Source: Asterionella formosa (Eukaryota). Taken from it: a DNA stretch of 41,269 nt. Positions 4,025 to 38,589 of this stretch are shown here, one piece after another. Both the position numbers and the translations under genes were made by a program. Under the pieces are notes generated by a model, which saw only the letters and a list, made by a program, of their open reading frames with translations, did not search any database and was not told the DNA's origin. Every line of letters begins with the position of its first letter. Positions within the stretch are counted from its first letter, which is position 1. The stretch spans positions 1-41,269 of the forward strand of contig NKIB01014709.1 in NCBI GenBank assembly GCA_002256025.1, written 5' to 3'.

Positions 4025-4067
4025 GTTTACACACATGAACTCATTCCATAAGCGGCCTCGGATCGAA

Positions 4068-4312
4068 CCGTTCTCCTTGCTACCTATTGTACATAGAGCT
4101 ATTTAATTAATACAAAGGAACTTCTATATGATTGGTCGCTTATGGTTCGCTTCGCAAATAAATGTTTCATACCGTATATAGAGGAATGGTACCATTACCC
4201 TTTACCATGTTGCTGATTGACCCATTCTCCATGCTACATATTATACATAGATCTACTTAATTAATACAAGGGAACTTCTATGTGATTGGTCGCTTATGGT
4301 TCGCTTCGCAAA
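4068..4312 (+). promoter_or_regulatory. Duplicated ~90-bp upstream block (period 154 bp) 5' of the micro-exon gene; putative promoter
   Basis: 4068-4158 and 4222-4312 share TTAATTAATACAA.GGAACTTCTAT.TGATTGGTCGCTTATGGTTCGCTTCGCAAA, including ATTGG (inverted CCAAT). The second copy ends ~120 bp upstream of the ATG at 4434. Promoter function is inferred. Confidence 0.5.
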
Positions 4313-4433
4313 CTACTTAATGTTTAACAGTAGAAAATTTTCTCGCGAAAAACAATAAAAGGAAGAAACAAAAGTTCATAAAACTAAACATATAAACATA
4401 GAAAATCTATATACGCATTTCTCACTCACCAAC

Positions 4434-6790
4434 ATGAAAGCCATTCGTTCCCTTTTCTTGCTTGCTGTGGTCATCCAATCGACTTTGGCATACTCCACCA
4501 TGAACTCAGAGGTACGTTGAAAACATCTGCATTGAATTAACTGTGATAGTGAGTGAGAAGTGCAAGGAGAATCAAACTGGTCCTTTTTGTTTCTGTGAAA
4601 TAAAATTCTTATTTTCTTTTTGATTCTGTCTTGCTTCTCCTTCATCTTAACACTGGCAGGAAACCAGATTCCTGAAAGTCTCAAAGGTAAGTTTTACTTG
4701 CTACAGGTTGTAGAACTCAATCAACTACAACGCCACACAAACAAGAAAAATGGTAACTTACTTATATCATCAACTAATGTTTGCAAATTGATTACTGCAC
4801 TATAGGCTCCCAAGGTATGTGTTTTAGAATAAAAATACCTTGTTTTTGTGATTCGATTCTCGCAAGCTCCTCAAGAAAATGGTAGCTACATGCACTTCTG
4901 TGTTGTAAATTGAGTCTATTGTTGAGACTTATCATGTTGATTCTTTGCCAACAGGATTCAAAGGCAACAAAGGCCCCCAAGGCTACCAAGGTATGTAGCT
5001 ACTTGAAGTGTGGTTAAATCACCTTTCTTGTTGTGTGTGCAGCAATATTAATACAAAAACAATGGAAAATACATTGTGTGCTTCATTTGAAAGCTTGTAA
5101 GCTTGTGAAGTAACAATAAACTGGTAGTGGCATGTGTTTCTGTTATGTCAATTGATTCTGTTCTGACTAACCTTTTTCTGGTTCCAATGTATTTGCTACT
5201 TTCTCTTGACAGAAGCCTAAAGGCACTAGAGAACTCAACAGCAGTGTATGTATTTACTAAACCGTGTTAACATGTTCTGTGGAATAATTCAAACTTTTGA
5301 GTTTGCAAACAGGTACACTGCATGCTATTGTCTTACATCAACTAACATTTGTAATTTGATTCTTTGGCTACAGAGTGGTTCCATGGTATGTATTTGCAGT
5401 AGTAAAGCACCTTGCTTCACATGTTTGAAGCATTTAAGAAAGAACATGGAGTTTGTTGCTTGAAAAAACGGGAACTCGTAACTACATTCACTACAACTGC
5501 AATGTGTTTTGATTTTGTTGTGACTAACATTAATCATGTTGATTCATTCCCATTAGGCTACAAGGACTCTCAAGGCTCCCACGGTATGTACTTGAAGTGT
5601 TGAAGCACTTTCTTATTTGTTGTGTGTTCGCAGCATTATGAAAACAAATCATGGAGTGTGATACTTGCAAGAACATCAAGCAGACTGGTAGCTAGAAGTT
5701 TCTGTAATCAAGTTTATTGATCATGTGGTGACTTACATTAATCATGTTGATTCCTTCCCATCAGGCTACAAAGGCTCCCAAGGCTCCAAAGGTATGTACT
5801 TAAAGTGGTGAAGCACTTCTTACTTGTTGTGTGTTTGCAGCATTATAAAAACAAATCATCGAGTTTGATACTTGCAAGCACATCAAGCAGACTGGTAGCT
5901 AGGTCCTGTAGTAATCACGATGTTTATTGATTATGTGGTGACTAACATTAATCATGTTGATTCATTCACATCAGGTTACAAAGATTCCCAAGGCTCCAAC
6001 GAGGGTATGTACTTGAAGTGGTGAAGCATTTTCTTACTTGTTGTGTGTTTCTGGAATTATAAAAACAAACCAAGGAATGTGATACTTGCAAGCACATCAA
6101 GCAGAGGACTGGTAGCTAGGTCCTGTAATTATGTTTTTTGATTATGTGGTGGCTAACATTAATCACATTCATTCATTTTCATCAGGCTACAAAGGCTCCC
6201 AAGGTTCCAACGAGGGTATGTACTTGAAGTGGTGAAGCACTTTCCTACTTCTTGTTGTGTGTTTCTGGTATTATAAAAACAAACCAAGGAATGTGATACT
6301 TGCAAGCACATCAAGCAGACTGGTAGCTAGGTCCTGTAATTATGTTTTTTGATCATGTGGTGACTAACATTAATCATGTTGATTCATTCCCATCAGGCTA
6401 CAAAGGCTCCCAAGGCTCAACAGGTATGTACTTGAAGTGTTGAAGCACTTTCTTACTTGTTGTGTGTTTGCAGAATTGTAAAAGCAAATCGTGGAGAGTA
6501 TTGTTCTCAGGCTTGCCAAGCAAACTGTTGGCATGTGCTGTACTAGCTAGCTACTATGGTTTTTTATTCTTTTGTGACTAACATTAATCATCTTGATTTT
6601 TTAGCCTACCATGGTAGGTGCTTGTAGCGGCGGAGCACCATGATTGATTTGGTTCAGCATCATGAAAATAAATTATGGCGAACTGTCTTTGGTCCCAAGC
6701 TAATCAAAACTGACTACCGGTATGCAAGACTATGATTCCTACTTTGTGTGACTAACATCTCCTATTTCGCTTCTTCTTCATTAGCTCTAA
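4434..6790 (+). CDS. Micro-exon gene encoding a ~116-aa secreted silaffin-like (RXL/KXXK) Lys-Ala-Pro-Thr-rich protein
   Basis: Exons 4434-4511, 4660-4686, 4806-4814, 4955-4990, 5213-5245, 5374-5385, 5557-5583, 5765-5791, 5975-6004, 6186-6215, 6397-6423, 6605-6613, 6785-6790. All have GTA(T/A/C/G)GT donors and YAG acceptors; most introns have a CTAAC-like branch point. Spliced product: MKAIRSLFLLAVVIQSTLAYSTMNSE|ETRFLKVSK|APK|DSKATKAPKATK|KPKGTRELNSS|SGSM|ATRTLKAPT|ATKAPKAPK|VTKIPKAPTR|ATKAPKVPTR|ATKAPKAQQ|PTM|L*. Confidence 0.85.
5505..6604 (+). repeat. Tandem repeat of a ~210-bp intron+micro-exon unit (about 5 copies)
   Basis: The unit GTGACTAACATTAATCATGTTGATTCATTCCCATCAG-[27/30-nt exon]-GTATGTACTTGAAGTG... 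recurs with exon starts at 5557, 5765, 5975, 6186 and 6397 (spacing 208-211). Confidence 0.9.
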
Positions 6791-7204
6791 AGCATCAGAC
6801 ATTGCAGGAACTTGGGTTATGCAAATTAAAAAATCGCCCTCTTTCAAGTAAGCTCCATCACTTTCCAAAAAGTGCTTTGTAGCAATATCAATCGAACCAA
6901 ATGGTTGATGTTGTTTGGTTCTAAAAGTGGTAGTACTTTAGCCACATAAAGATCTATAGCACTTTCTGCACGCTGCCAAACTGTCGATTATTTAGTTTGT
7001 AAGAAGTAGAATAGCTGACAAGCTTGGGGATAAAAAGGTTGGTTGTCCCATGACAATTCTCGAAACATAATAATAGCAGTGGTCATAATCCATATTGATT
7101 ACAGTTTTCTTGATGGGTAAGAAAGAAAGCATCAAATCCAATTATCATGATACTTTCTTCTCTTCGCCGAGATTCATTGGCCTATATATATATAATGTAG
7201 TGAG

Positions 7205-7449
7205 TGCTAGGAAATATGGACGTACAAGATACAGACAGTGAGTGGGTCAAAGTACAAGGAAAGAAAAAGAAAGAAGCCACGTCAACAGTGAAGGTTACGT
7301 GGACAGATGAGTAGGTATATATACATAATAGTTAACATGAGTTCTGCTCATTCTTTACTAATTATCGGGTTTACATCAAGAAAGCCTCCCTCTGTCCATT
7401 GTTGCCTTACAGACACAATAGAATACAGTCCGAACATGTGGATTAAACA
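7205..7449 (+). repeat. 5' LTR of the Copia element
   Basis: TGCTAGGAAATATGG...GTGGATTAAACA; matches 20115-20237 plus 26280-26413. Confidence 0.92.
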
Positions 7450-12654: not shown

Positions 12655-12999
12655 GTAGTAAGCGAGCAACAGAACACCATATGTTCATGACTGTTGCTAC
12701 TGCAGTGGGACAGTAAATCATCATAGTTTTAGGATTGTATGATCATAAAATTGAAAAAGAATAGTCGGAGTAGTAAGCGAGCAACAGAGCACCATATGTT
12801 CATGACTGCTGCTACTGCTGCTACTGCAGCGGGACATTAAATCATCATATTTTTAGGATTGTATGATCATAAAATTGAAAAAGAATAGTCGGAGTAGTAA
12901 GCAAGCAACAGAACACCATATGTTCATGACTGTTGCTACTACAGTGGGACAGTAAAGCATCATAGTTTCAGGATCATATAATCATATAATTGAAAAGAA
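12655..12999. repeat. Tandem repeat, 115-124 bp x3
   Basis: The unit GTAGTAAGCGAGCAACAGAACACCATATGTTCATGACTG...AATTGAAAAAGAATAGTCGGA starts at 12655, 12770 and 12894. Confidence 0.9.
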
Positions 13000-18689: not shown

Positions 18690-20224
18690 ATGGGGATGTG
18701 CCAACGGCCGAAAGCAGAGAGCATATACAAACAAGGAAGAGGCAAGTTCACCAACTGTGGCTATCGAATCAGTACTGTTATCTTGTGTAATCGATGCAAT
18801 GGAAGGTCGTGATGTTGCCACAATTGACATACCCGGGGCATTCATGCAGGAGGATATGGAGGATGTTGTTAACATGAAGTTGGAAAGGAAAATGGCCAAA
18901 CTTCTTGTGTGAATAGATCCCAGATTATACCGCAAACATGTGCAGATGCAAGGGGGTGAGCAGGTCTTATATGTGGAAATAAAGAAATCATTGTACGGAA
19001 CTCTCAAGGCAGCGCTGTTATTTTGGAAGAAACATACAACAAAATTGAAACAATGGGGATTTGAGGTGAATCCATACGATTGGTGTGTAATGAACAAAAA
19101 AACTATTGATCGGGCCCAATGCACAATATTATGGCATGTGGATGATCTAAAGATATCTCATGTCAAGCCAAATGTAGTTACCAAGGTAATCAAACAGTTG
19201 GAGGCAGAATTTGGCATTGAGGCACCCCTTACAAAGACACGTGGAAAAGTTCATGAATACCTAGGCATGATTCTTGATTTTACTACAATAGGAAAAGTCA
19301 TGGTGTCAATAAAGGATTTTATTGAACGGATGTTAAACGAGCTGCCAACAGACATGGATGGGGAAGCTGTGACTGCAGCAGCAAATCATCTCTTCAAAGT
19401 GAACGAAACAGACCCAATCAAGTTGAAAGAAGAAAAATCCGCAATGTTTCATCATAACATGGCCAAACTGTTGTTTTTATGTAAGCGTGCCCGTCCGGAT
19501 ATTCAGACCGCGGTGGTTTTTCTATGTACACGTGTTAAGGCTCCCGACACAGATGATTACAAAAAATTGACTCGGGTAATGAGGTATTTACGAGGAACTG
19601 TGAATATGCCACTGACACTGTAGGCAGAGAGTATGTAAATAGTCAAGTGGTGGGTCGACGCTTCATTTGCTGTTCCGGAGCTGTGATGACCCTAGAAAAA
19701 GGAGGAATATATGGCACATCAACCAGGCAAAGAGTTAACACAAGAAGTTCCACAGAAGATGAGCTTGTAGGAGTCAACGATGCAATGCCACAGATATTGT
19801 GGACACGATATTTTTTCGAGGCTCAAGGATACGATGTTAAAGATTCAATTTTCTTTCAGGATAATCAGAGTGCAATATTGTTGGAAAAGAATCGCAAGGC
19901 ATCGAGCAGCAAAAGAACTCGCCACATTAACATCAGATATTTCTTTGTTACTGATCATATTGAGGCAAAGAGGTGCCAGTTCAATACTGCCCTACACAAG
20001 AGATGGTTGCAGATTTGTTTACAAAGCCACTACAGGGTGTCCTTTTCCAGAAATTTAGAAATGAGATTATGAATATTGATCCAGCAACTGTTAGCTTCCA
20101 GGATCACAGGAGTGTGTTAGGAAATATGGATGTACAAGATACAGACGGTGAGTGGGTCAAAATACAAGGAAAGAAAAAGAAAGAAGCCACGTCAACAGTG
20201 AAGGGTACGTGGACGGATAAGTAG
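18690..20224 (+). pseudogene. Copia reverse transcriptase-RNase H pseudogene
   Basis: GCANGRKQR, DIPGAFMQ, KSLYGTLKAALLFW, LWHVDDLKISH, RARPDIQTAV, SSTEDELV, QDNQSAI, KRTRHINIRYFF, ADLFTKPLQG, and DHRSVL running into the 3' LTR. Contains stops and frameshifts. Confidence 0.95.
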
Positions 20225-20237
20225 GTATATATACATA
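20115..20237 (+). repeat. 3' LTR, left part
   Basis: TGTTAGGAAATATGG...TATATACATA matches 7205-7327; preceded by CACAGGAGTG (PPT position). Confidence 0.92.
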
Positions 20238-24836: not shown

Positions 24837-26279
24837 TGGAATCAGCTATTGATTGAATAATGGTTCTGGTACCCTCATAAATATTTTACACTTCTTCGGA
24901 GTGGCAAGAACATATGTGTGGGACAAGCTACACTACGTAGATATAAGCTATATAAATATAGCGGTCACTTTGTGGAAAGTAGTATATGTGTGGCAATGGG
25001 GTTAGGCTGTCTTATATATTGCCTCTGATGTCGCCGATAAAGATAGTAAAATGTTATTAAGCAAAGTTACGATTGTTATTTCGAACCCCCTGCTATTCAA
25101 GGTTCATGTGATGCTACTATTTCCTGAATGAAATGAAGCTACTTCCTGATCAGTGATGTTGCGGCTCTAATTCTGCAGCATACAAACATGCTTGCCAATA
25201 GCTAGTCAATGAGAATGGAAGACCCATGGCTAATTAAGGCCATGAGCAACAAACTGCACCGCCATCTGGTCCATCTTCTCTTTGATCCACATCTCATCTT
25301 GAAGAACAGATTCGAAATACGGATCGATGTTCGCAATGGGCGAAATATGATCAAAAGGTACTATCTTCTTGATTTCGGTTGGAATTGGAATCGGGTATGG
25401 CCTTGCTTCAATGCATTGTTCTCCAATTCTGTCGTATAAATTGACCAAAGCTTTTGATTTCGAGTAACAAACAAACAATCAAACTTCGCCAGCATAATTC
25501 CCCATCAATATCGAGACCATATCATTTGTTATAAGACTGAGATCATCGCCGTCCCCGCAAGAAGGTAGCTCGTAAGGGATTCAACGAACGCACATGGCTT
25601 GTAAGAATTTCGATTACTGATATGCGAATGGAGAGATAATGACGAATACTACCGATACAAGAATTGGATCAAAGCATGTACCAGTAGAGCATTCAAATCG
25701 GAACGGCAACAAGGAAAGCACCGTTGTTGCACAGAATTCATTCTAATAGCATCATCGGGTAAAAGGTTTACATACACGTAAGGTGATCTGTGTCAAGTCA
25801 TAAGCTTTGCTAAAACAATAATTAATCAAAGAGCAACATCTATTGATCAATCAAACAACGTATCAATATATCAAAGCATTTGGTTAGCAGATTAAATTTG
25901 ATAACTAATATATATGCCTTCTATCTATGCGTAACTTGACGTGTGTAAAAAAGTAATCTGACAAACAAATTTGATTGACCACACCAACAGGATCATTGAT
26001 ACATCAAAATTATCATCTACATAACACAACATTTGATCAATATATCAAGAATTTGGATTAACCGATCAGATTTGGTAACTAATATATACAATTCTTTTAT
26101 ACGCATAACCTAACATGTGTATGCTGGTAACCTAACGTACAAATTTGATTGATCATACAGATACAGCCGTTGATATATCAAAATTATCATCAACATATCA
26201 AAATATTTGAATAATCAATCAATTTTTTAACGTATGCTGAGTAAAACGTTAGATCTAATGGAAAATCTATTCAAAGACG

Positions 26280-30715: not shown

Positions 30716-32293
30716 ATGTTTCCTCCTTGCCTCCTTCGTCCTCGACTACTTCCTCGTCACGTTGCTTTCTTTTCAACAATAGGAGGAGAAAGGATGAGAA
30801 TCGCCATTTGTGGAGGTGGTGCTGCTGGATTAAGTACGGCATTGCACCTGGCAGAATTGGTCGACCGAGGGCTTGTGGCTGGACCCATTGATGTGTTCGA
30901 TGCGAATCTATCCTCCACTCCCCGGGCCGTTGGGGTGGGCCTTTGGAGTACTGCCATTCTTCCCTTTCAGAATTCATGGAGAGCTTCGCACCAATTGGTG
31001 TGGGAAGATCTCATGCACCATGGCAAGTGGGTCAAGGACGTTGGATATCGGACACCATATGGGACGTGGTTGGCAGTATCGCAATTGCCTACAGAAGTAT
31101 CTGCTATGAAGGACAGTATGCCAGCTTTGTTGTTTTTAAGAGAGCAAGATATGCTCCATTCGCTTCGCAAGGCAGTTCACTTAGAAGAAATGAAAGGGAC
31201 CATACAAATCCATCAAGGGAAGCAGTCGACCGTGACTGGGATTGATGAATACTTTGTGCCACCCTTTTCAGCAAAGTTGAAATTAAGGAATGGCACTTGC
31301 ACTGAACGAGATTATCATTTAATTGTTGCCGCAGACGGGATGAATTCAGTGTTACGACAACGCTATGGAGGACATCGGATATTGAGACGATTGATTGGAA
31401 CGACTGCGTTGGGAAGTCCCTTCGATGCGAAACAAGAACGATACGAAGGACCTGCCAATGAAGCTTCTTGGGAGGAACAAGAACAAACTGAAGCCAATGC
31501 CATTGAAGATCGAGGATATACCGTATTTAGAGGAAATGCCGACATTTCCAGTCAAGATGCTGGGATGGACGGTATCAGTTTCCAAACCTGGGGCGAAGGA
31601 AACTCCATGCGATTTGCGACAGTCCCACTCTCTTATCCTGGTGGACCCTCAGGACGTGGGGAACAACAAGTTTGGTTCATAACAACCTCTGATAAAAATG
31701 TTACCAATGAGACTGATCCAATGGTCCGAAAAGAAAAACTTTTAAAAGCATTTGACAAATGGCATGATCCCATTCAAACACTGATCGAGGCCACGCCTGC
31801 GACGGAAATTCTCGTAGAACGCGCCATGGCCCATCGACATTCGGTAGGGCCCGTGTTGAATCTGAATCGGGTACTCCGACAAGTTTACAAAACATCTCCT
31901 CCGTCGTCGGGGCCAGGCCCTGCGGTGGTATTCATTGGAGACTCCTTCATGACAGTAGACCCAATTTTGGCACAGGGATTTACTATGGCTATGGAAGGCA
32001 GTGCAGCACTAGCTCCATCTGTCGAAGCCAGTATTTTGCAATTTCAAGATACTGGACTTGCCTTTGATCCGTACGAACTCAGAAACCAATTACAACAACG
32101 ACACGACGAGCGAAATGGACGATTATTACATCTATTGCAGGCCACAGAAATTGTGCAAGCCTTGGGACAGCCTCAAGGTGGATTGGTAGGAAGTCTATCT
32201 CGATATGTGGTTCGACCGCTAATGCAGCTTGCACCTGATTTTATCAAGCGTCCTATATTCAATGCTATGCTTACGTATTCACTGAAAAAGTGA
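30716..32293 (+). CDS. FAD-dependent monooxygenase (FAD_binding_3 / aromatic hydroxylase-like family)
   Basis: Intact 525-aa ORF with RIAICGGGAAGL (Rossmann fold), LIVAADGMNS (DG motif) and FIGDSFMTVDPILAQG (GD motif). The Arg-rich N-terminus resembles a mitochondrial presequence. Confidence 0.92.
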   Translation: MFPPCLLRPRLLPRHVAFFSTIGGERMRIAICGGGAAGLSTALHLAELVDRGLVAGPIDVFDANLSSTPRAVGVGLWSTAILPFQNSWRASHQLVWEDLMHHGKWVKDVGYRTPYGTWLAVSQLPTEVSAMKDSMPALLFLREQDMLHSLRKAVHLEEMKGTIQIHQGKQSTVTGIDEYFVPPFSAKLKLRNGTCTERDYHLIVAADGMNSVLRQRYGGHRILRRLIGTTALGSPFDAKQERYEGPANEASWEEQEQTEANAIEDRGYTVFRGNADISSQDAGMDGISFQTWGEGNSMRFATVPLSYPGGPSGRGEQQVWFITTSDKNVTNETDPMVRKEKLLKAFDKWHDPIQTLIEATPATEILVERAMAHRHSVGPVLNLNRVLRQVYKTSPPSSGPGPAVVFIGDSFMTVDPILAQGFTMAMEGSAALAPSVEASILQFQDTGLAFDPYELRNQLQQRHDERNGRLLHLLQATEIVQALGQPQGGLVGSLSRYVVRPLMQLAPDFIKRPIFNAMLTYSLKK

Positions 32294-32550: not shown

Positions 32551-35005
32551 CTATTTTGACATTGATATGCTTGCTGTCCCGTCATTGCCTTGGTAACCTG
32601 GAGGAACGACTTCAATGTGGCTTGGCAAGCCCGTCTCCGAGAACCATACTGCCCGAAATGTGTCATAATCTGCTGTGTGCCTCATCATTTGCCCAATGAC
32701 ACAGCAAGAACACCAGATGGAAACCAACAAATCTTCGCAACCTTCCAAATTTTCTTCAGGTATTTCGTAAGCTTTGCGGATTGATAGTCGTGTCCGGATT
32801 ATCAAATTGACACAGAAAAAGAGAACAGGAGTACTAAAAAGCAAAAATATAACTGCGGCAAATACCTTGACTGGAATTTTTGGTGTTTGAGCCACTATAG
32901 TAATGAGTAATACGTTCAAGGCGATGAAACATAATGATAGCACCAATACAGTCTGAACTTTCATTCTCGATCGAATTGACTGTTTTCGAACACCAATGAC
33001 TGGTAGACGCATTCGAGCCATCACTTGTGTGAGCGCAACTACAAAACGAAAGGTTAGACGTGGATGAACTTGGAGGTGATGCAGCACGCAATGAGGATAA
33101 GGTCAACGTACTTGGAGCAAAAATGAAGCTTGTCCACAAAGCTGGGTGGTCAATGCCGTGGCGAAAACAATCAAAGAGTCCATCTCGCCAGTGATGATGA
33201 GGAATTCCTGTTTCTTGGTACTTTGTCGCTCTCCAGTCCGTCACTGTAGATTCAAATACTTCACCTTTACTGACACCTCCTTTTGGGACCGTAGCAGTAA
33301 AAGCCCTACCTTCGACTTCGGCTTCAAATTGATAGTCCTCTGGAAAGCTACCAGGTGATAACACTTTCATTGATGTGGGATTCTGTGACCATTCTGATCC
33401 TACAATTGACTTTTCTTTCATTCTCCCTAGTGCATATTCTTTTGAAAGCATATTTTCTTCCGATATTATTACCTGCATTTCCCCAAGTGCATTTTGTTTT
33501 GAAAGAATGTCTTCCCCCCTTATTGCCTGTATTGTTTTTTCGCTTTGCTTTGAAGGCTCAACAGCCATAATCTCGTCATTACTTCGCACACTACCGCTGT
33601 CGCCATCTTCCATGAGTTTGTAATCACACAAGATGGTAGGAGGAATTTCCCTTGCCTCGATAAAAATAGGCCTGACCGGCAGTTCGTCTCGTTGATTGAA
33701 ATCATGAGGTATAGGGCTCTTGGATCGAGATATTTTTTTACTAAAAGTCTCGTTGAAATGCTTGTTTCGAGATGGAGATGAACTCCTCCTTTCAGGGGCG
33801 CGGAGCAGGGGTGCGAGCGGTTTCTTTCCAATTCTCTTCCCTTGTCGTGTACTATCAGCACTCATTGTAAGTGAGCTGACGGACGAAGCAGCCGTAAGAT
33901 TTTCCAACTCCAGCTTTAGACTATCCAAAATGAACCTGTACCTCACTCGGTTCTCTGGGTCGGTGGATTGTGACAACAAAATGGTCGCTCTGTCGATCTC
34001 TTCCATTATAATTTGCCTTGTTTTGGACTCAGCTTGTAATGCGTGCAATATTTTCAATTTACGTTCATGTTGCTTGGGTTTTGGTGGTATCAACTCAAAA
34101 ATTTCTGAATTCTCCGTCCTTCTCGGACTTTTTGGTATTTGTACAATCAACTTCGTCATGGTTTCTTTGGCACTGTGTTTGTTGTCAGGACCCTTTTTCA
34201 GTATTGGAGTTGGTTTCAGATAGTCTGGGCTCTTCCTGGATGGACTTTTACTTCCTCGCCTGGAGCTTTTAGATCTACGGGATCGCCTTGACGGAGGAGT
34301 ATACTCACAAAATCTTCGATCCAAGCTGCTGTCTCGAGTGATAGGGCTGTCTCTAATGGAGATTATGTCACGATTTTTGGAGCGAACTTCTGGGTCCCTC
34401 TCAACAGAATTCTTCTCTAAATGAAAGTTTTGGTGAACAACTGGTTTATGTGTATTTTCTTGAATAGAACTTGGCTTCGATAGATCAGTTGGAATCCGTT
34501 CGAATTGACCACGTTGTGCAGTTGGATGTGGATACGTAATGTATCCATTGATGTGATGGTTTTCATCACCTTTATAGCCTTCCGAAATCTCTACCTTGGT
34601 TTTGAATGGAGACGAATGCAGACATCGTTGCTGAATGGGAATTTTTGAAATAAGCAACGAATCTCCAAATGCATTTCTTAGCCTTCGTAACAAACCATCT
34701 TGTGTCGACTCTCCTGGATTCGCAAAGGTTGCTAGCGATTTGATTTTCTTTTGATAAGCTTCCGAAAAAATGAGCCGCTCCTCTGCTGTCATAACCGTCT
34801 CCAAGACGCGCTCCCCCTGCTGTCTCGAATCATTCTGTTCTGATAGCAGTTTGTAGGCAAGTCTTGTAAAGGCCTCTTCGTCCTGTAGCAGGGGATTATT
34901 CGGTTGGTGTAATGCCATTGTTTGAAAATTTGTCATGTAGTGTTCAGTTCCATTTTGAGATTCATCACGGTACGGTGAATAGCTGAGGTAGCCGTAGTTG
35001 GCCAT
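32551..35005 (-). CDS. PLAC8-domain membrane protein with a long low-complexity N-terminus (~793 aa, 2 exons)
   Basis: Exon 1 35005-33112, 73-nt GT-AG intron 33111-33039 with CTAAC, exon 2 33038-32551. Motifs WRDGLFDCF, two hydrophobic helices, and IRKAYEIPE...GCEDLLVSIWCSCCVIGQMMRHTADY. Confidence 0.88.
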
Positions 35006-35571: not shown

Positions 35572-38500
35572 ATGAACATGTCGCGACAAAAATGGGGTAA
35601 CGATTTGCAACAGCCACTGCATCGCTGTGGCGCTTTATCACCCCTTTCGCATGAGAGCAATGCGTCATCAGGATACTGTCCACCTAACGAGACGATCAAT
35701 GCATTCTCGGGAGCAAGCTCGTTCTCAAAGAGAAGCGATTTGATGCACGACGACGACATTTTTATGAGCAAAATGAAGTCACTGATAAATCTGCATGAAT
35801 CCACGAATCTTAGAGTCGAAGACGCCATCGAAAGCTCCTTTCCTTCGCCAGGAGAACAAAAGCTTTTCCATGATGTGCTTCAGTTCCGAATGGCAAATCT
35901 CCCCATGTTCCCTGAGGCCGGAGAAACGGCAATGAACCAAATGGTCCGGGAGATAAACCAGAGGTTTGGGAGGGCTTTGCGAAATGTGTCAACAAGAAAA
36001 CAATCAAGTAGCTATACCCTGCCACCAATTGTAATTCATCCACTGTCAGCAGTCGATGGGAGATCACCATCAGGGAGTCATACCGGTTTTAGCTCACCTC
36101 CTCGAGACCAATCAGCATTGCCTCATTCGCCTCAGTCTACCACGACATATTACTCTCAAATGCACTCGTCGCAATCACAACTGGACAATGGGATGCAACG
36201 TGCGATGCCACTAATGAATCCGATAGCAATGTCTCCCATGACATATTATCAGGGCCACGTTAATACTCATGGATCCCAGGTATCGCCTACTAATCCTTCG
36301 GAAGCCCCTTTGCAAGCAGCCCAAAACAGTTCATCCTCGCCAGTACGGGTGGCAGCGAATCCATCGTCACCGACAGGGTTTCTGAATCAAGCAATGTCGC
36401 AACACCAGTTGGATCGCACTATGCAAAATCAGCAAGTTCCAATTCTGGGCCGTCTTGAAGAATCACATGATGATAGCCTGCATGTAGCACCGCATCAACA
36501 AGTGCAGTCGAAGGTTCGATATGGCGAGGCACGTGATAATCTGCAGGCAAAATCTCTGGAAGCACAGCCTCAGGTTCGTCAAGCAGAATCACAGACTAAT
36601 AGTGTGCCATCACATCAGCAACAGCAGATGAAATGGACAGCCCCCCAATTATTGAGCCAACCCAATATCCCTCGACAGCTAACGCAAAATGACATTAACC
36701 GGCAGTCCGCTGTACCAGGAAGACTTCCAAACGGTCAAGGAACGTCTAAGGTTGTGAAACAAAAGACACAAGGTATTATGGAAAGTCAATCACAATATCA
36801 ACCTTTTGTAGAAACACCCCAAATACATAGGATGATTCCAGGACAAAGGACGCCAAGAGAAAACTATCAATACCAACCTCCTCAGCTCACTGCAAAAGCA
36901 ATGCCAAAAATAGATATAGATTGGAACATACCAGTAATGGCAGAAGAAATGACAATCGAAGCCTTTGTTGACAACTCGCCCAAGAAACAAGTGAACATTC
37001 GAGAGAAGACGATACGAAGAGAGCGGGTGTCTTCTTCAACAAACAACCCATCATCTCCCTTGTCTGTTGCAAGTGATCCAACTGCTGTGATGTCAAATCG
37101 TGGTAGACTTACTAATTCTTTTGATTCAACTGAAAACATGAATGAAAATGACAGGAAAGTAGAAAAGAAGTCGAAACAAAAAACCAGAACAAGGAATTCC
37201 AATCCGAATGAGGTAGCTGCAACAGCTTTTTCCGCGGCATGTGCTGAATCCCCTAATATGTCATCAACTTCACCTCTCATTTTTGATTCAATACAAGTCA
37301 AAGCCATTGGGGGAAACTACAAACTCGACATCTCAAGGAACAAGAGTGTCCTTCTTTTCAATGAAGCCGAAACACTGCAGAAACATGCAATTCTGCGAAA
37401 AACACTCATGGACGAAGTTGATCGAGTTAATCAGAGGCTGGCAACTGCTACTATGGAAGGGGAAAAGAATGCATACCTAGCATATCTTGATGAGCTACAG
37501 CTAGAACTAGAAAAATGGAATAAAGCAGCACATTTTGGTTCTGATAACATGAATGTGGTGGCTTGTAGTAACGAGCAACATAAAGACCTGAGGGCATCGC
37601 CAGTCGACAAGGTTCAAGACTCTACTGGTACTTCATTTGAGACAGACAAGTTTACTATTGAAACCATGGAACTATGTGACCTCTATAAAGGTGATGAAAG
37701 AAATACTGATGACAGTACTAAGACAAGGGTTCATTCCAAAAAGGCAAATGTACAAGAAGCCAAACATGACGATGGGATTCCAAGTGACATTAGGAGGCAA
37801 TGGAGAATTGTTGACATTGAGGCACCAAATACTCTTCCAGGAGGCTTCAAGTTTGAAGCAAGGCTTGATGATGAAGTCTTCATTGCGACAGTACCTAGGG
37901 GTGGAGTAAAGAAGGGAGAAATATTTGCAACAAGAATGGGAGATATCTATGGAAGCAATGATGATGCAGCAGATCGAACTCGTGTGTACAAGGACATGGA
38001 TGCACCACCCACAAGGTGGAGAGATGACCTATTTGATTGCTTCCGACATGGCTTGCACCATCCAATGCTATGCAACACAATATTTTGCCCTATGATTGCA
38101 CTACATCAGATATTGTCACGAGTCCAAATGGATGGTACTGGATACCGTATAGTCACAATCAAATCAAGAACCCGTGTCTTCTTTGTGGTCTGGCTGGTCT
38201 TTCTTTTGATTCTGATTCATGTCATTTACGTGGCGTTTTTCATTGTGGGTTCACCAGACGAAGAAAGTATACTCATAGCTACCATTCCTTTGATCGGCAT
38301 GGACTGTTTTTTGCTCCTCTATGGTGTCTACATGGTAGCAAAGACAAGGAGACAGGTTCGGAGTGAATATGATATTCCAGAATTACGTTGCAAAGGATAC
38401 GAGGACTGCTGCATGGCAGTGTTTTGTACTTGTTGTACCATTGCTCAAATGGGACGGCATACAGCAGACTATGAAACCTACCGAGCTTACTGCTGCTCGG

Positions 38501-38589
38501 ATACAGGGCTTGCAAATCATATCGAAATTAAGCTTCCTGTGGAATCTCTCCTGGACCGGAGTGACATTGAACGTGTTTCATCAACATAA
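35572..38589 (+). CDS. PLAC8-domain membrane protein with a long Gln/Ser/Pro-rich N-terminus (1005 aa)
   Basis: Intact ORF with WRDDLFDCF...FCPMIALHQ, two TM helices and VRSEYDIPE...GYEDCCMAVFCTCCTIAQMGRHTADY. Confidence 0.9.
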   Translation: MNMSRQKWGNDLQQPLHRCGALSPLSHESNASSGYCPPNETINAFSGASSFSKRSDLMHDDDIFMSKMKSLINLHESTNLRVEDAIESSFPSPGEQKLFHDVLQFRMANLPMFPEAGETAMNQMVREINQRFGRALRNVSTRKQSSSYTLPPIVIHPLSAVDGRSPSGSHTGFSSPPRDQSALPHSPQSTTTYYSQMHSSQSQLDNGMQRAMPLMNPIAMSPMTYYQGHVNTHGSQVSPTNPSEAPLQAAQNSSSSPVRVAANPSSPTGFLNQAMSQHQLDRTMQNQQVPILGRLEESHDDSLHVAPHQQVQSKVRYGEARDNLQAKSLEAQPQVRQAESQTNSVPSHQQQQMKWTAPQLLSQPNIPRQLTQNDINRQSAVPGRLPNGQGTSKVVKQKTQGIMESQSQYQPFVETPQIHRMIPGQRTPRENYQYQPPQLTAKAMPKIDIDWNIPVMAEEMTIEAFVDNSPKKQVNIREKTIRRERVSSSTNNPSSPLSVASDPTAVMSNRGRLTNSFDSTENMNENDRKVEKKSKQKTRTRNSNPNEVAATAFSAACAESPNMSSTSPLIFDSIQVKAIGGNYKLDISRNKSVLLFNEAETLQKHAILRKTLMDEVDRVNQRLATATMEGEKNAYLAYLDELQLELEKWNKAAHFGSDNMNVVACSNEQHKDLRASPVDKVQDSTGTSFETDKFTIETMELCDLYKGDERNTDDSTKTRVHSKKANVQEAKHDDGIPSDIRRQWRIVDIEAPNTLPGGFKFEARLDDEVFIATVPRGGVKKGEIFATRMGDIYGSNDDAADRTRVYKDMDAPPTRWRDDLFDCFRHGLHHPMLCNTIFCPMIALHQILSRVQMDGTGYRIVTIKSRTRVFFVVWLVFLLILIHVIYVAFFIVGSPDEESILIATIPLIGMDCFLLLYGVYMVAKTRRQVRSEYDIPELRCKGYEDCCMAVFCTCCTIAQMGRHTADYETYRAYCCSDTGLANHIEIKLPVESLLDRSDIERVSST

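Follow-up and report, generated by a model that had tools for sequence, protein, structure and literature searches.

The window analysed here is the whole of contig NKIB01014709.1 of the Asterionella formosa assembly GCA_002256025.1, 41,269 nucleotides (nt) read on the forward strand. Between positions 4434 and 6790 of the plus strand lies a gene of 13 exons, which a first-pass annotation, made from the letters alone, had put forward as a hidden micro-exon gene. We walked along the strand from the ATG at 4434, asking for an AG before each exon, a donor of the form GTA[ATG]G[TG] after it, the given exon lengths and zero stop codons. All 13 exons were recovered at the positions and lengths that had been claimed, and the joined exons leave a frame of 351 nt open, again as proposed. 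We are highly confident that this is a real, expressed and spliced nuclear gene of a diatom.

The first exon (4434..4511; 78 nt, 26 codons) encodes a signal-peptide-like N-terminus. Exon 2 (4660..4686; 27 nt) carries the first of three RXL motifs (R-F-L) and is followed by the 9-nt exon 3 (4806..4814; A-P-K), by exon 4 (4955..4990; 36 nt), which holds a run of KXXK motifs, by exon 5 (5213..5245; 33 nt) with the second RXL (R-E-L), and by the 12-nt exon 6 (5374..5385; S-G-S-M). The third RXL (R-T-L) is found in exon 7 (5557..5583; 27 nt), the first unit of an array of cassettes to which exon 8 (5765..5791; 27 nt, A-T-K-A-P-K-A-P-K), exon 9 (5975..6004; 30 nt), exon 10 (6186..6215; 30 nt) and exon 11 (6397..6423; 27 nt) also belong. 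Exon 12 (6605..6613) has only 9 nt (P-T-M), and the coding part of exon 13 (6785..6790) is CTC TAA, one codon plus the stop. The 11 internal exons, 9-36 nt each and all in phase 0, thus hold 267 of the 351 coding nt (76%).

The 5′ untranslated region (UTR) covers at least 78 nt (4356..4433), since an RNA contig (X1 record 1; the runs are described below) is colinear with 4356-4509. An in-frame TAA occupies 4356-4358 and no ATG occurs between it and 4434 from which upstream in-frame translation could begin. The 3′ UTR, of about 190 nt (6791..6980), is covered by RNA contigs over 6787-6900, 6871-6980 and 6828-6977. Loss of the 12 introns turns a pre-mRNA of some 2.6 kb (4356-6980 at the least) into an mRNA of some 0.6 kb. 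We also noted that a 98-nt direct repeat occurs twice (4061-4158 and 4215-4312; 90% identical) in what is presumably the promoter region, 120-370 nt upstream of the start codon.

The 12 introns are 119-222 nt long, and the canonical splice signals that had been reported are present in every one: all start with GT and end in YAG. The donor is GTA[ACT]GT in 11 of them and GTAGGT in the other, and a YTRAY motif, mostly ACTAAC, lies 7-50 nt (mostly 18-33 nt) from each 3′ end. The signals are thus close to consensus, with GTAYGT donors, a branch site like ACTAAC and YAG. Short introns with strong signals make it probable that the spliceosome works by intron definition, matching sites across each intron, in which case exons of 9 nt would present no problem. 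Each intron contains two to six in-frame stops, and across the region no open reading frame (ORF) of at least 40 amino acids (aa) shares the frame of the gene. This is why the gene is invisible to an ORF listing, as had been noticed from the start. The window's other genes each consist of one long ORF (1005, 723, 527 and 525 aa), which makes a gene with 12 introns an outlier among uninterrupted neighbours. The diatom host assumed at first is supported by the 525-aa ORF (30716-32293), which has 230 relatives at E<=1e-20: among the 120 matches listed, all named organisms are diatoms, the best named one being Fragilaria crotonensis (58%), followed by Cylindrotheca, Nitzschia, Seminavis and Bacillariaceae. 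A look-alike search with this ORF gave a mixture of taxa and did not help to place the organism.

Several properties of the sequence set the exons apart from their surroundings. The gene makes up 5.7% of the window and holds nine of its 19 plus-strand GTATGT hexamers (binomial probability 3.5e-7), and the guanine-plus-cytosine (GC) content steps from 0.357 in introns to 0.507 in exons. Codon choice is biased, with lysine written AAG 17 times and AAA three times, and alanine written GCT in 14 of 18 cases. For 11 internal exons to have lengths divisible by 3 throughout, the chance probability is (1/3)^11 = 5.7e-6. The first-pass annotation had cautioned that five exons are duplicates of one another and do not count as independent evidence for the phase bias, and when these are counted once the value rises, as it should, to (1/3)^7 = 4.6e-4. 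Elsewhere in the window, candidates of the form YAG, 6-60 nt, GTA[ACT]GT showed neither phase bias nor a second cluster: by length modulo 3 they are distributed 13/8/12 on the plus strand (n=33) and 11/10/10 on the minus strand (n=31).

Five lake-water or freshwater metatranscriptome runs from two studies hold part of this stretch, and four of them, labelled X1, X2, X4 and X5 and covering both studies, were compared; X2 is a poly-A library. The data are assembled contigs, which report presence and joints and not abundance or strand; rare variants are dropped in assembly, isoforms cannot be counted, and depths are not taken here as a ranking of genes or exons. GT..AG joints at the predicted borders occur in contigs of all four runs and both studies, and 11 of the 12 introns have a listed joint. 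This is decisive evidence for splicing, and it settles in the affirmative whether a spliced transcript joins these exons, the point on which the original proposal had been staked.

The joints E1|E2 (4511|4660), E4|E5 (4990|5213) and E7|E8 (5583|5765) were present in all four runs. So were the two joints that span micro-exons in the 5′ half of the gene: the letters of the 9-nt exon 3 are read between 4687 and 4953 (4687->4953, with CTCCCA between), and those of the 12-nt exon 6 between 5245 and 5556, where contigs of X1 and X4 read AGTGGTTCCAT. The joint E8|E9 (5791|5975) was found in its reference form in three runs (X1, X4 and X5) and in a variant form in three, and E9|E10 (6004|6186) in X1, X4 and X5. 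The letters of the 9-nt exon 12 lie between 6423 and 6787 or 6783 in three runs (X1, X2 and X5), being read as CCTACCATGCC between 6423 and 6787 in an X1 contig. A 301-nt contig of X1 (record 1) and a 230-nt contig of X4 (record 17, depth 1655) each run through exons 1 to 7. In the best-covered contigs, then, none of the exons E1 to E7 is missing, and the orders E8-E9-E10 and E11-E12-E13 are kept.

Two sites are polymorphic in the RNA. A variant with AC for GT at 5975-5976, in the first codon of exon 9, is expressed in X1, X2 and X4, the two forms being about equally deep (89 vs. 77 in X1, 827 vs. 767 in X4), and at 6786 an expressed T>C change makes the final codon Pro instead of Leu. The likely source is a pair of alleles or strains. 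Separately, the bin that contains exon 8 (5752-5848) has a summed contig depth of 2053 in X2, compared to at most 34 in the other bins of that run; this peak may come from a paralogue, from a different transcript with much of the same KAPK-coding repeat, or from a repeat-collapsed contig.

Much of the gene is made of copies of one unit. Tandem Repeats Finder places a 211-bp repeat of 4.7 copies, with 86% matches, at 5502..6488 of the plus strand. The array takes in exons 7-11, bearing out the earlier observation that five exons are duplicates of each other. The repeating unit is an exon plus an intron: pairwise comparison showed the units I7E8 to I10E11 to be 84-92% alike over 206-217 nt, with I6E7, I11E12 and I3E4 as more distant kin, and I2E3 and I5E6 have their 3′ intron ends in common. 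The gene grew by tandem duplication of these cassettes of about 210 bp. Both borders of a cassette fall between codons, so that any number of copies keeps the frame.

A search of metagenome DNA with a degenerate 22-letter pattern matched a single contig, L001 (2714 nt), which holds the orthologous 3′ part of the gene from a relative and is 79% identical to the window over 1.2 kb. Its exons of 18, 18, 27 and 9 nt are all in phase 0 and use the same splice signals as the window, GTATGT and CAG. The 9-nt exon (669-677) is the counterpart of exon 12, and a one-codon last exon reads CCA TAA where the window has CTC TAA. The two exon indels between the sequences are both of 12 nt, compared to 14 non-exon indels of which 6 are multiples of 3.

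Three observations can be set against the coding gene model. The E10|E11 joint (intron 10, 6216-6396) is the one not among the joints listed; X5 record 28 leaves exon 10 at 6214 and runs on for 49 further letters, and since the listing left out 118 pieces, no conclusion is based on this gap. Contigs containing introns exist at lower depth, as in X4 at 5585-5784 (128, vs. 790-1655 for spliced contigs) and at 6425-6798 (101); these are unspliced RNA or carried-over DNA. Finally, identity between the window and L001 is the same in exons (66/78) and introns (587/694), 84.6% in both cases, and nucleotide conservation therefore gives no sign that the exons are under purifying selection. The comparative support for coding comes from the frame-keeping indels and not from substitution rates. 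The conserved introns and the intron-containing contigs are also what would be seen if the exon chain had arisen by chance or belonged to a spliced non-coding RNA, such as the host gene of intronic small RNAs. With RNA joints at the borders that were predicted, chance can be excluded. A non-coding RNA would have to account for a frame that stays open over 13 exons, a signal-peptide-like start, the codon bias and the GC step, as well as for an orthologue whose differences in exon length stay in frame. A comparison of 4200-7100 with Rfam on both strands gave no match at E<=1, and thus no known intronic small RNA. We consider this alternative extremely improbable and take the locus to be a protein-coding micro-exon gene.

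The first-pass annotation had gone further and suggested a combinatorial system like that of the micro-exon genes (MEGs) of schistosomes. Its architectural half holds, since all 11 internal exons are phase 0-0 and any subset of them could therefore be dropped in frame. The half concerning skipping fared less well: the full-length exon order is dominant in the RNA contigs, and only two joints could mean skipping, both of them ambiguous. One, 5582->6396, would link E7 to E11 and is listed along with 5582->5764. Its support is a run of 22 letters common to E8 and E11, and it cannot be told from E7|E8 for that reason; the long E1-E7 contig of X4 breaks off after these 22 letters, right at the first difference between E8 and E11. 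The other, 4687->6184 with CTCCCA between, joins E2-E3 to an exon whose first letters are like those of E8, E10 or E11, and was found in one of the four runs (X2) with a side of 21 letters. The depth of this X2 contig (12.2) compares with that of the E2-E3-E4 contig (11.7), and real molecules with the junction are needed to give it. Both X2 contigs have the 21-letter side, as a branch of a k=31 graph at this place would presumably produce.

Regulated skipping of symmetric micro-exons, as in schistosome MEGs, would account for these joints and would yield peptides that vary in their number of KXXK modules. Alleles or strains with fewer cassettes explain the joints equally well, because the RNA comes from a mixed community, two variants are about equally deep at 5975-5976, and the related taxon represented by L001 has cassettes of different lengths. 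Regulated skipping is accordingly an unlikely reading in our judgement. Exon skipping is possible in frame, while a combinatorial use of it is hypothetical; the main transcript has all exons.

The 351-nt frame encodes a predicted prepropeptide of 116 aa, as computed from the coordinates. Its first 19 residues comprise a basic n-region (K2, R5), a hydrophobic core of 9 residues and then T-L-A, with a Kyte-Doolittle maximum over 9 residues of 3.12. The 97 residues that follow include 19 Lys, 15 Ala, 15 Thr, 12 Pro and 8 Ser and have a predicted isoelectric point of 11.1. The RXL sites are at R29, about 10 residues past the putative signal-peptide cut, R56 and R68. There are 13 overlapping KXXK motifs, lysine spacing of 3 dominates, and windows of 14 residues with five or six lysines start at residues 31-44 and 76-77, spanning 31-57 and 76-90. 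The product therefore has the secreted, biomineral-type look ascribed to it at the outset, with a signal-peptide-like N-terminus, RXL, KXXK and lysine clusters.

All of these motifs have counterparts in proteins of diatom silica. RXL is described as a general endoprotease site of silica-associated precursors (silaffin, frustulin, cingulin and silacidin), and KXXK as the motif by which lysines are likely recognized for methylation and the attachment of polyamines (PMC4557024). The pentalysine cluster, five non-consecutive lysines in 12-14 residues, mediates silica targeting and is needed for it (PMC5501833, PMC9650480). On this basis we propose that the 116-aa product would enter the endoplasmic reticulum (ER) by way of the signal peptide at its N-terminus, probably cut after residue 19. 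Cleavage at the three RXL sites, as in silaffin, cingulin and frustulin precursors, would then free two polycationic peptides of Lys, Ala, Pro and Thr (approximately residues 32-58 and 71-116, with lengths near 27 and 46) and leave a short Ser-rich spacer. The KXXK lysines would be modified, the pentalysine-type clusters would target the peptides to the silica deposition vesicle, and the peptides would become part of the silica wall or help to pattern it. This interpretation as a whole, that a cassette-built micro-exon gene makes secreted, RXL-processed, lysine-rich peptides for the silica wall, is the one we favour, with moderate confidence; for a silaffin-like role of the product in particular we see the chances as about evenly balanced.

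A number of points count against it. The signal peptide and the cut after A19 were judged by hand. The peptide is poor in serine (8 of 97 residues after the signal peptide), so that the high serine of silaffins is missing, and phosphoserines are described as important for targeting (PMC4557024). Between the lysines stand A, P, T, V, I, S or D, unlike the S or G of a published screen (PMC5501833); what the peptide carries is KXXK in its general form (PMC4557024), not in the strict S/G one. With few serines and such spacers, no zwitterionic character rich in phosphoserine is to be expected. The silica-related function is suggested by motifs. Searches for relatives covered exon 1, and proteins related to the rest of the product may exist and may have a known function. 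A 30-aa exon-1 query gave 0 matches at E<=0.001 against 1.84 billion representatives of 15 billion predicted proteins, and a 40-aa query (14 codons of the 5′ UTR plus exon 1) found no match to longer proteins; such short queries have little power and their nulls are weak evidence of absence.

The same composition would suit a secreted product with no part in silica, that is, a polycationic, disordered protein rich in Pro and Thr, such as a glycosylated component of the cell surface or mucilage or the precursor of cationic antimicrobial peptides. Low serine and KXXK spacers other than S or G fit it, as do the abundant A-P and T-P dipeptides (the 97 residues include 15 Thr and 12 Pro); hydroxylated prolines are described as general in diatom wall proteins, as are PT repeats (PMC5501833), and the tie to silica is one of motifs. 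Against such a product stands that a signal peptide, an RXL about 10 residues further on, KXXK periodicity and pentalysine-type clusters occur together, the combination by which diatom silica proteins are recognized. We regard it as improbable.

The N-terminus could also be read as a bipartite plastid or periplastidial targeting signal, the product then being a basic, disordered plastid protein. If the cut follows T-L-A, the next residue is Tyr, and ASAFind accepts F, W, Y and L at this position (PMC4329603), a further point against a silica role; by hand count of the peptides of E1-E3, the 20 residues past the cut are rich in hydroxyl groups and net positive. These same 20 residues include two acidic ones (E and D), the Pro at +3 of the ASAFAP pattern is absent, and a plastid destination would leave the RXL motifs and lysine clusters unexplained. 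We think it very unlikely, and retain the silica-wall interpretation as the best account of the product.

In its architecture the gene resembles the schistosome MEGs, whose coding region consists mostly of tiny symmetrical exons, placed between a longer exon for the signal peptide and a final exon (PMC4350168, 10.1101/2023.06.21.545858). MEG products are described as small, secreted and disordered, and MEGs as hard to annotate automatically and spread by duplication (PMC4350168, 10.1101/2023.06.21.545858). The 11 internal exons, each 9-36 nt long and divisible by 3 and together holding 267/351 coding nt, correspond to this plan, as would the first exon, whose putative signal peptide was judged by hand. 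The differences lie in the introns, which are 119-222 nt here and up to 5 kb in MEGs, and in splicing: alternative splicing is reported to give at least 87 proteins from 35 MEGs (10.1101/2023.06.21.545858), whereas the full-length form dominates here. The diatom exons are, moreover, mostly tandem copies of one cassette. Since MEGs are reported to be restricted to platyhelminths (PMC4350168) and alternative splicing is their hallmark, the diatom gene is best seen as MEG-like by convergence and not as a member of that group.

The product, on the other hand, is closest to silaffins and other KXXK-motif proteins, such as Sil1p/natSil-1A of Cylindrotheca fusiformis and tpSil3 of Thalassiosira pseudonana. 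Like these it has an ER signal peptide (putative here, judged by hand) and an early RXL, further RXL sites that end repeat units, lysines at KXXK spacing, pentalysine-type clusters, and repeats that are predicted to give several short cationic peptides per precursor. It differs in having few serines, in placing A, P or T instead of S or G between the lysines, with little phosphorylation expected, and in being only 116 aa long. Of five silaffin-like features, four are thus present (a putative signal peptide, RXL, KXXK spacing in its general form and pentalysine clusters) and one, serine richness, is absent. In sil1 the repeats are contained in one exon. We found no description of a silaffin gene split into micro-exons in the excerpted silaffin literature (PMC4557024, PMC5501833), where the word 'intron' does not occur. 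Nor was a description of a diatom micro-exon gene found in the literature searched, whose scope excluded subscription journals and supplements.

A third comparison is with fibrillar collagen genes, in which phase-0 exons of 54 bp (also 45 and 108 bp) are thought to have arisen by tandem exon duplication. They too encode a repetitive structural protein in many short symmetric exons that hold whole repeat units. They are animal genes with Gly-X-Y repeats, and their exons are larger and not micro-exons of 9-12 nt.

Outside the gene, the window can still be aligned to L001 (about 1070-1279) past the end of the RNA at about 6980 and up to 7193. This interval contains only short ORFs of 42-46 aa; it could represent a small gene that is not annotated, or else a conserved element downstream. 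At 1279-1282, L001 joins window position 7193 straight to 26413, so that the window carries about 19 kb extra. Two direct repeats of 124 nt (7204-7327 and 20114-20237; 94% identical) flank a 13-kb block, within which an RVT_2 reverse-transcriptase ORF lies at 18940-19623; the block looks like a long terminal repeat (LTR) retroelement of Copia type inserted just 3′ of the gene. The extra 19 kb also hold tandem repeats at 12655-12996 and 25862-26209, with periods of about 124 and 174 nt. Further along, PLAC8 domains were noted in the 1005-aa ORF (35572-38589, plus strand; residues 816-963) and in a 178-aa ORF (32551-33087, minus strand) that overlaps the 3′ end of the 723-aa ORF (32834-35005).

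The locus is a clean natural example of how a protein repeat grows by duplication of symmetric exon-intron cassettes, and it shows faithful splicing of 9-nt exons in a setting where the other genes of the window are uninterrupted ORFs. The MEG architecture has been described as restricted to flatworms (PMC4350168), and for this reason a convergent algal case widens the picture of this type of gene. The finding also bears on what is catalogued in diatoms. Catalogues of diatom silica-forming proteins derive from predicted proteomes, and a highly expressed gene with 76% of its frame in exons of 9-36 nt escapes ORF lists and probably most gene predictors; the null result of the exon-1 search, short as the query was, is consistent with this. 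If more such genes exist, part of the repertoire of lysine-rich peptides that shape biosilica would have been overlooked. A bolder and frankly speculative extension, which we hold to be rather unlikely, is that a whole class of micro-exon genes built from cassettes and coding for peptides that pattern silica lies hidden in diatoms. Each phase-0 exon of 9-36 nt would then supply a single KXXK module, and module number would be tuned by unequal crossing-over among the cassettes of about 210 bp, giving differences between alleles and species, and by in-frame skipping, giving isoforms within a cell. Were this true, the class would be a convergent counterpart of the schistosome MEGs that gene predictors overlook and that is therefore absent from present catalogues of biosilica proteins.

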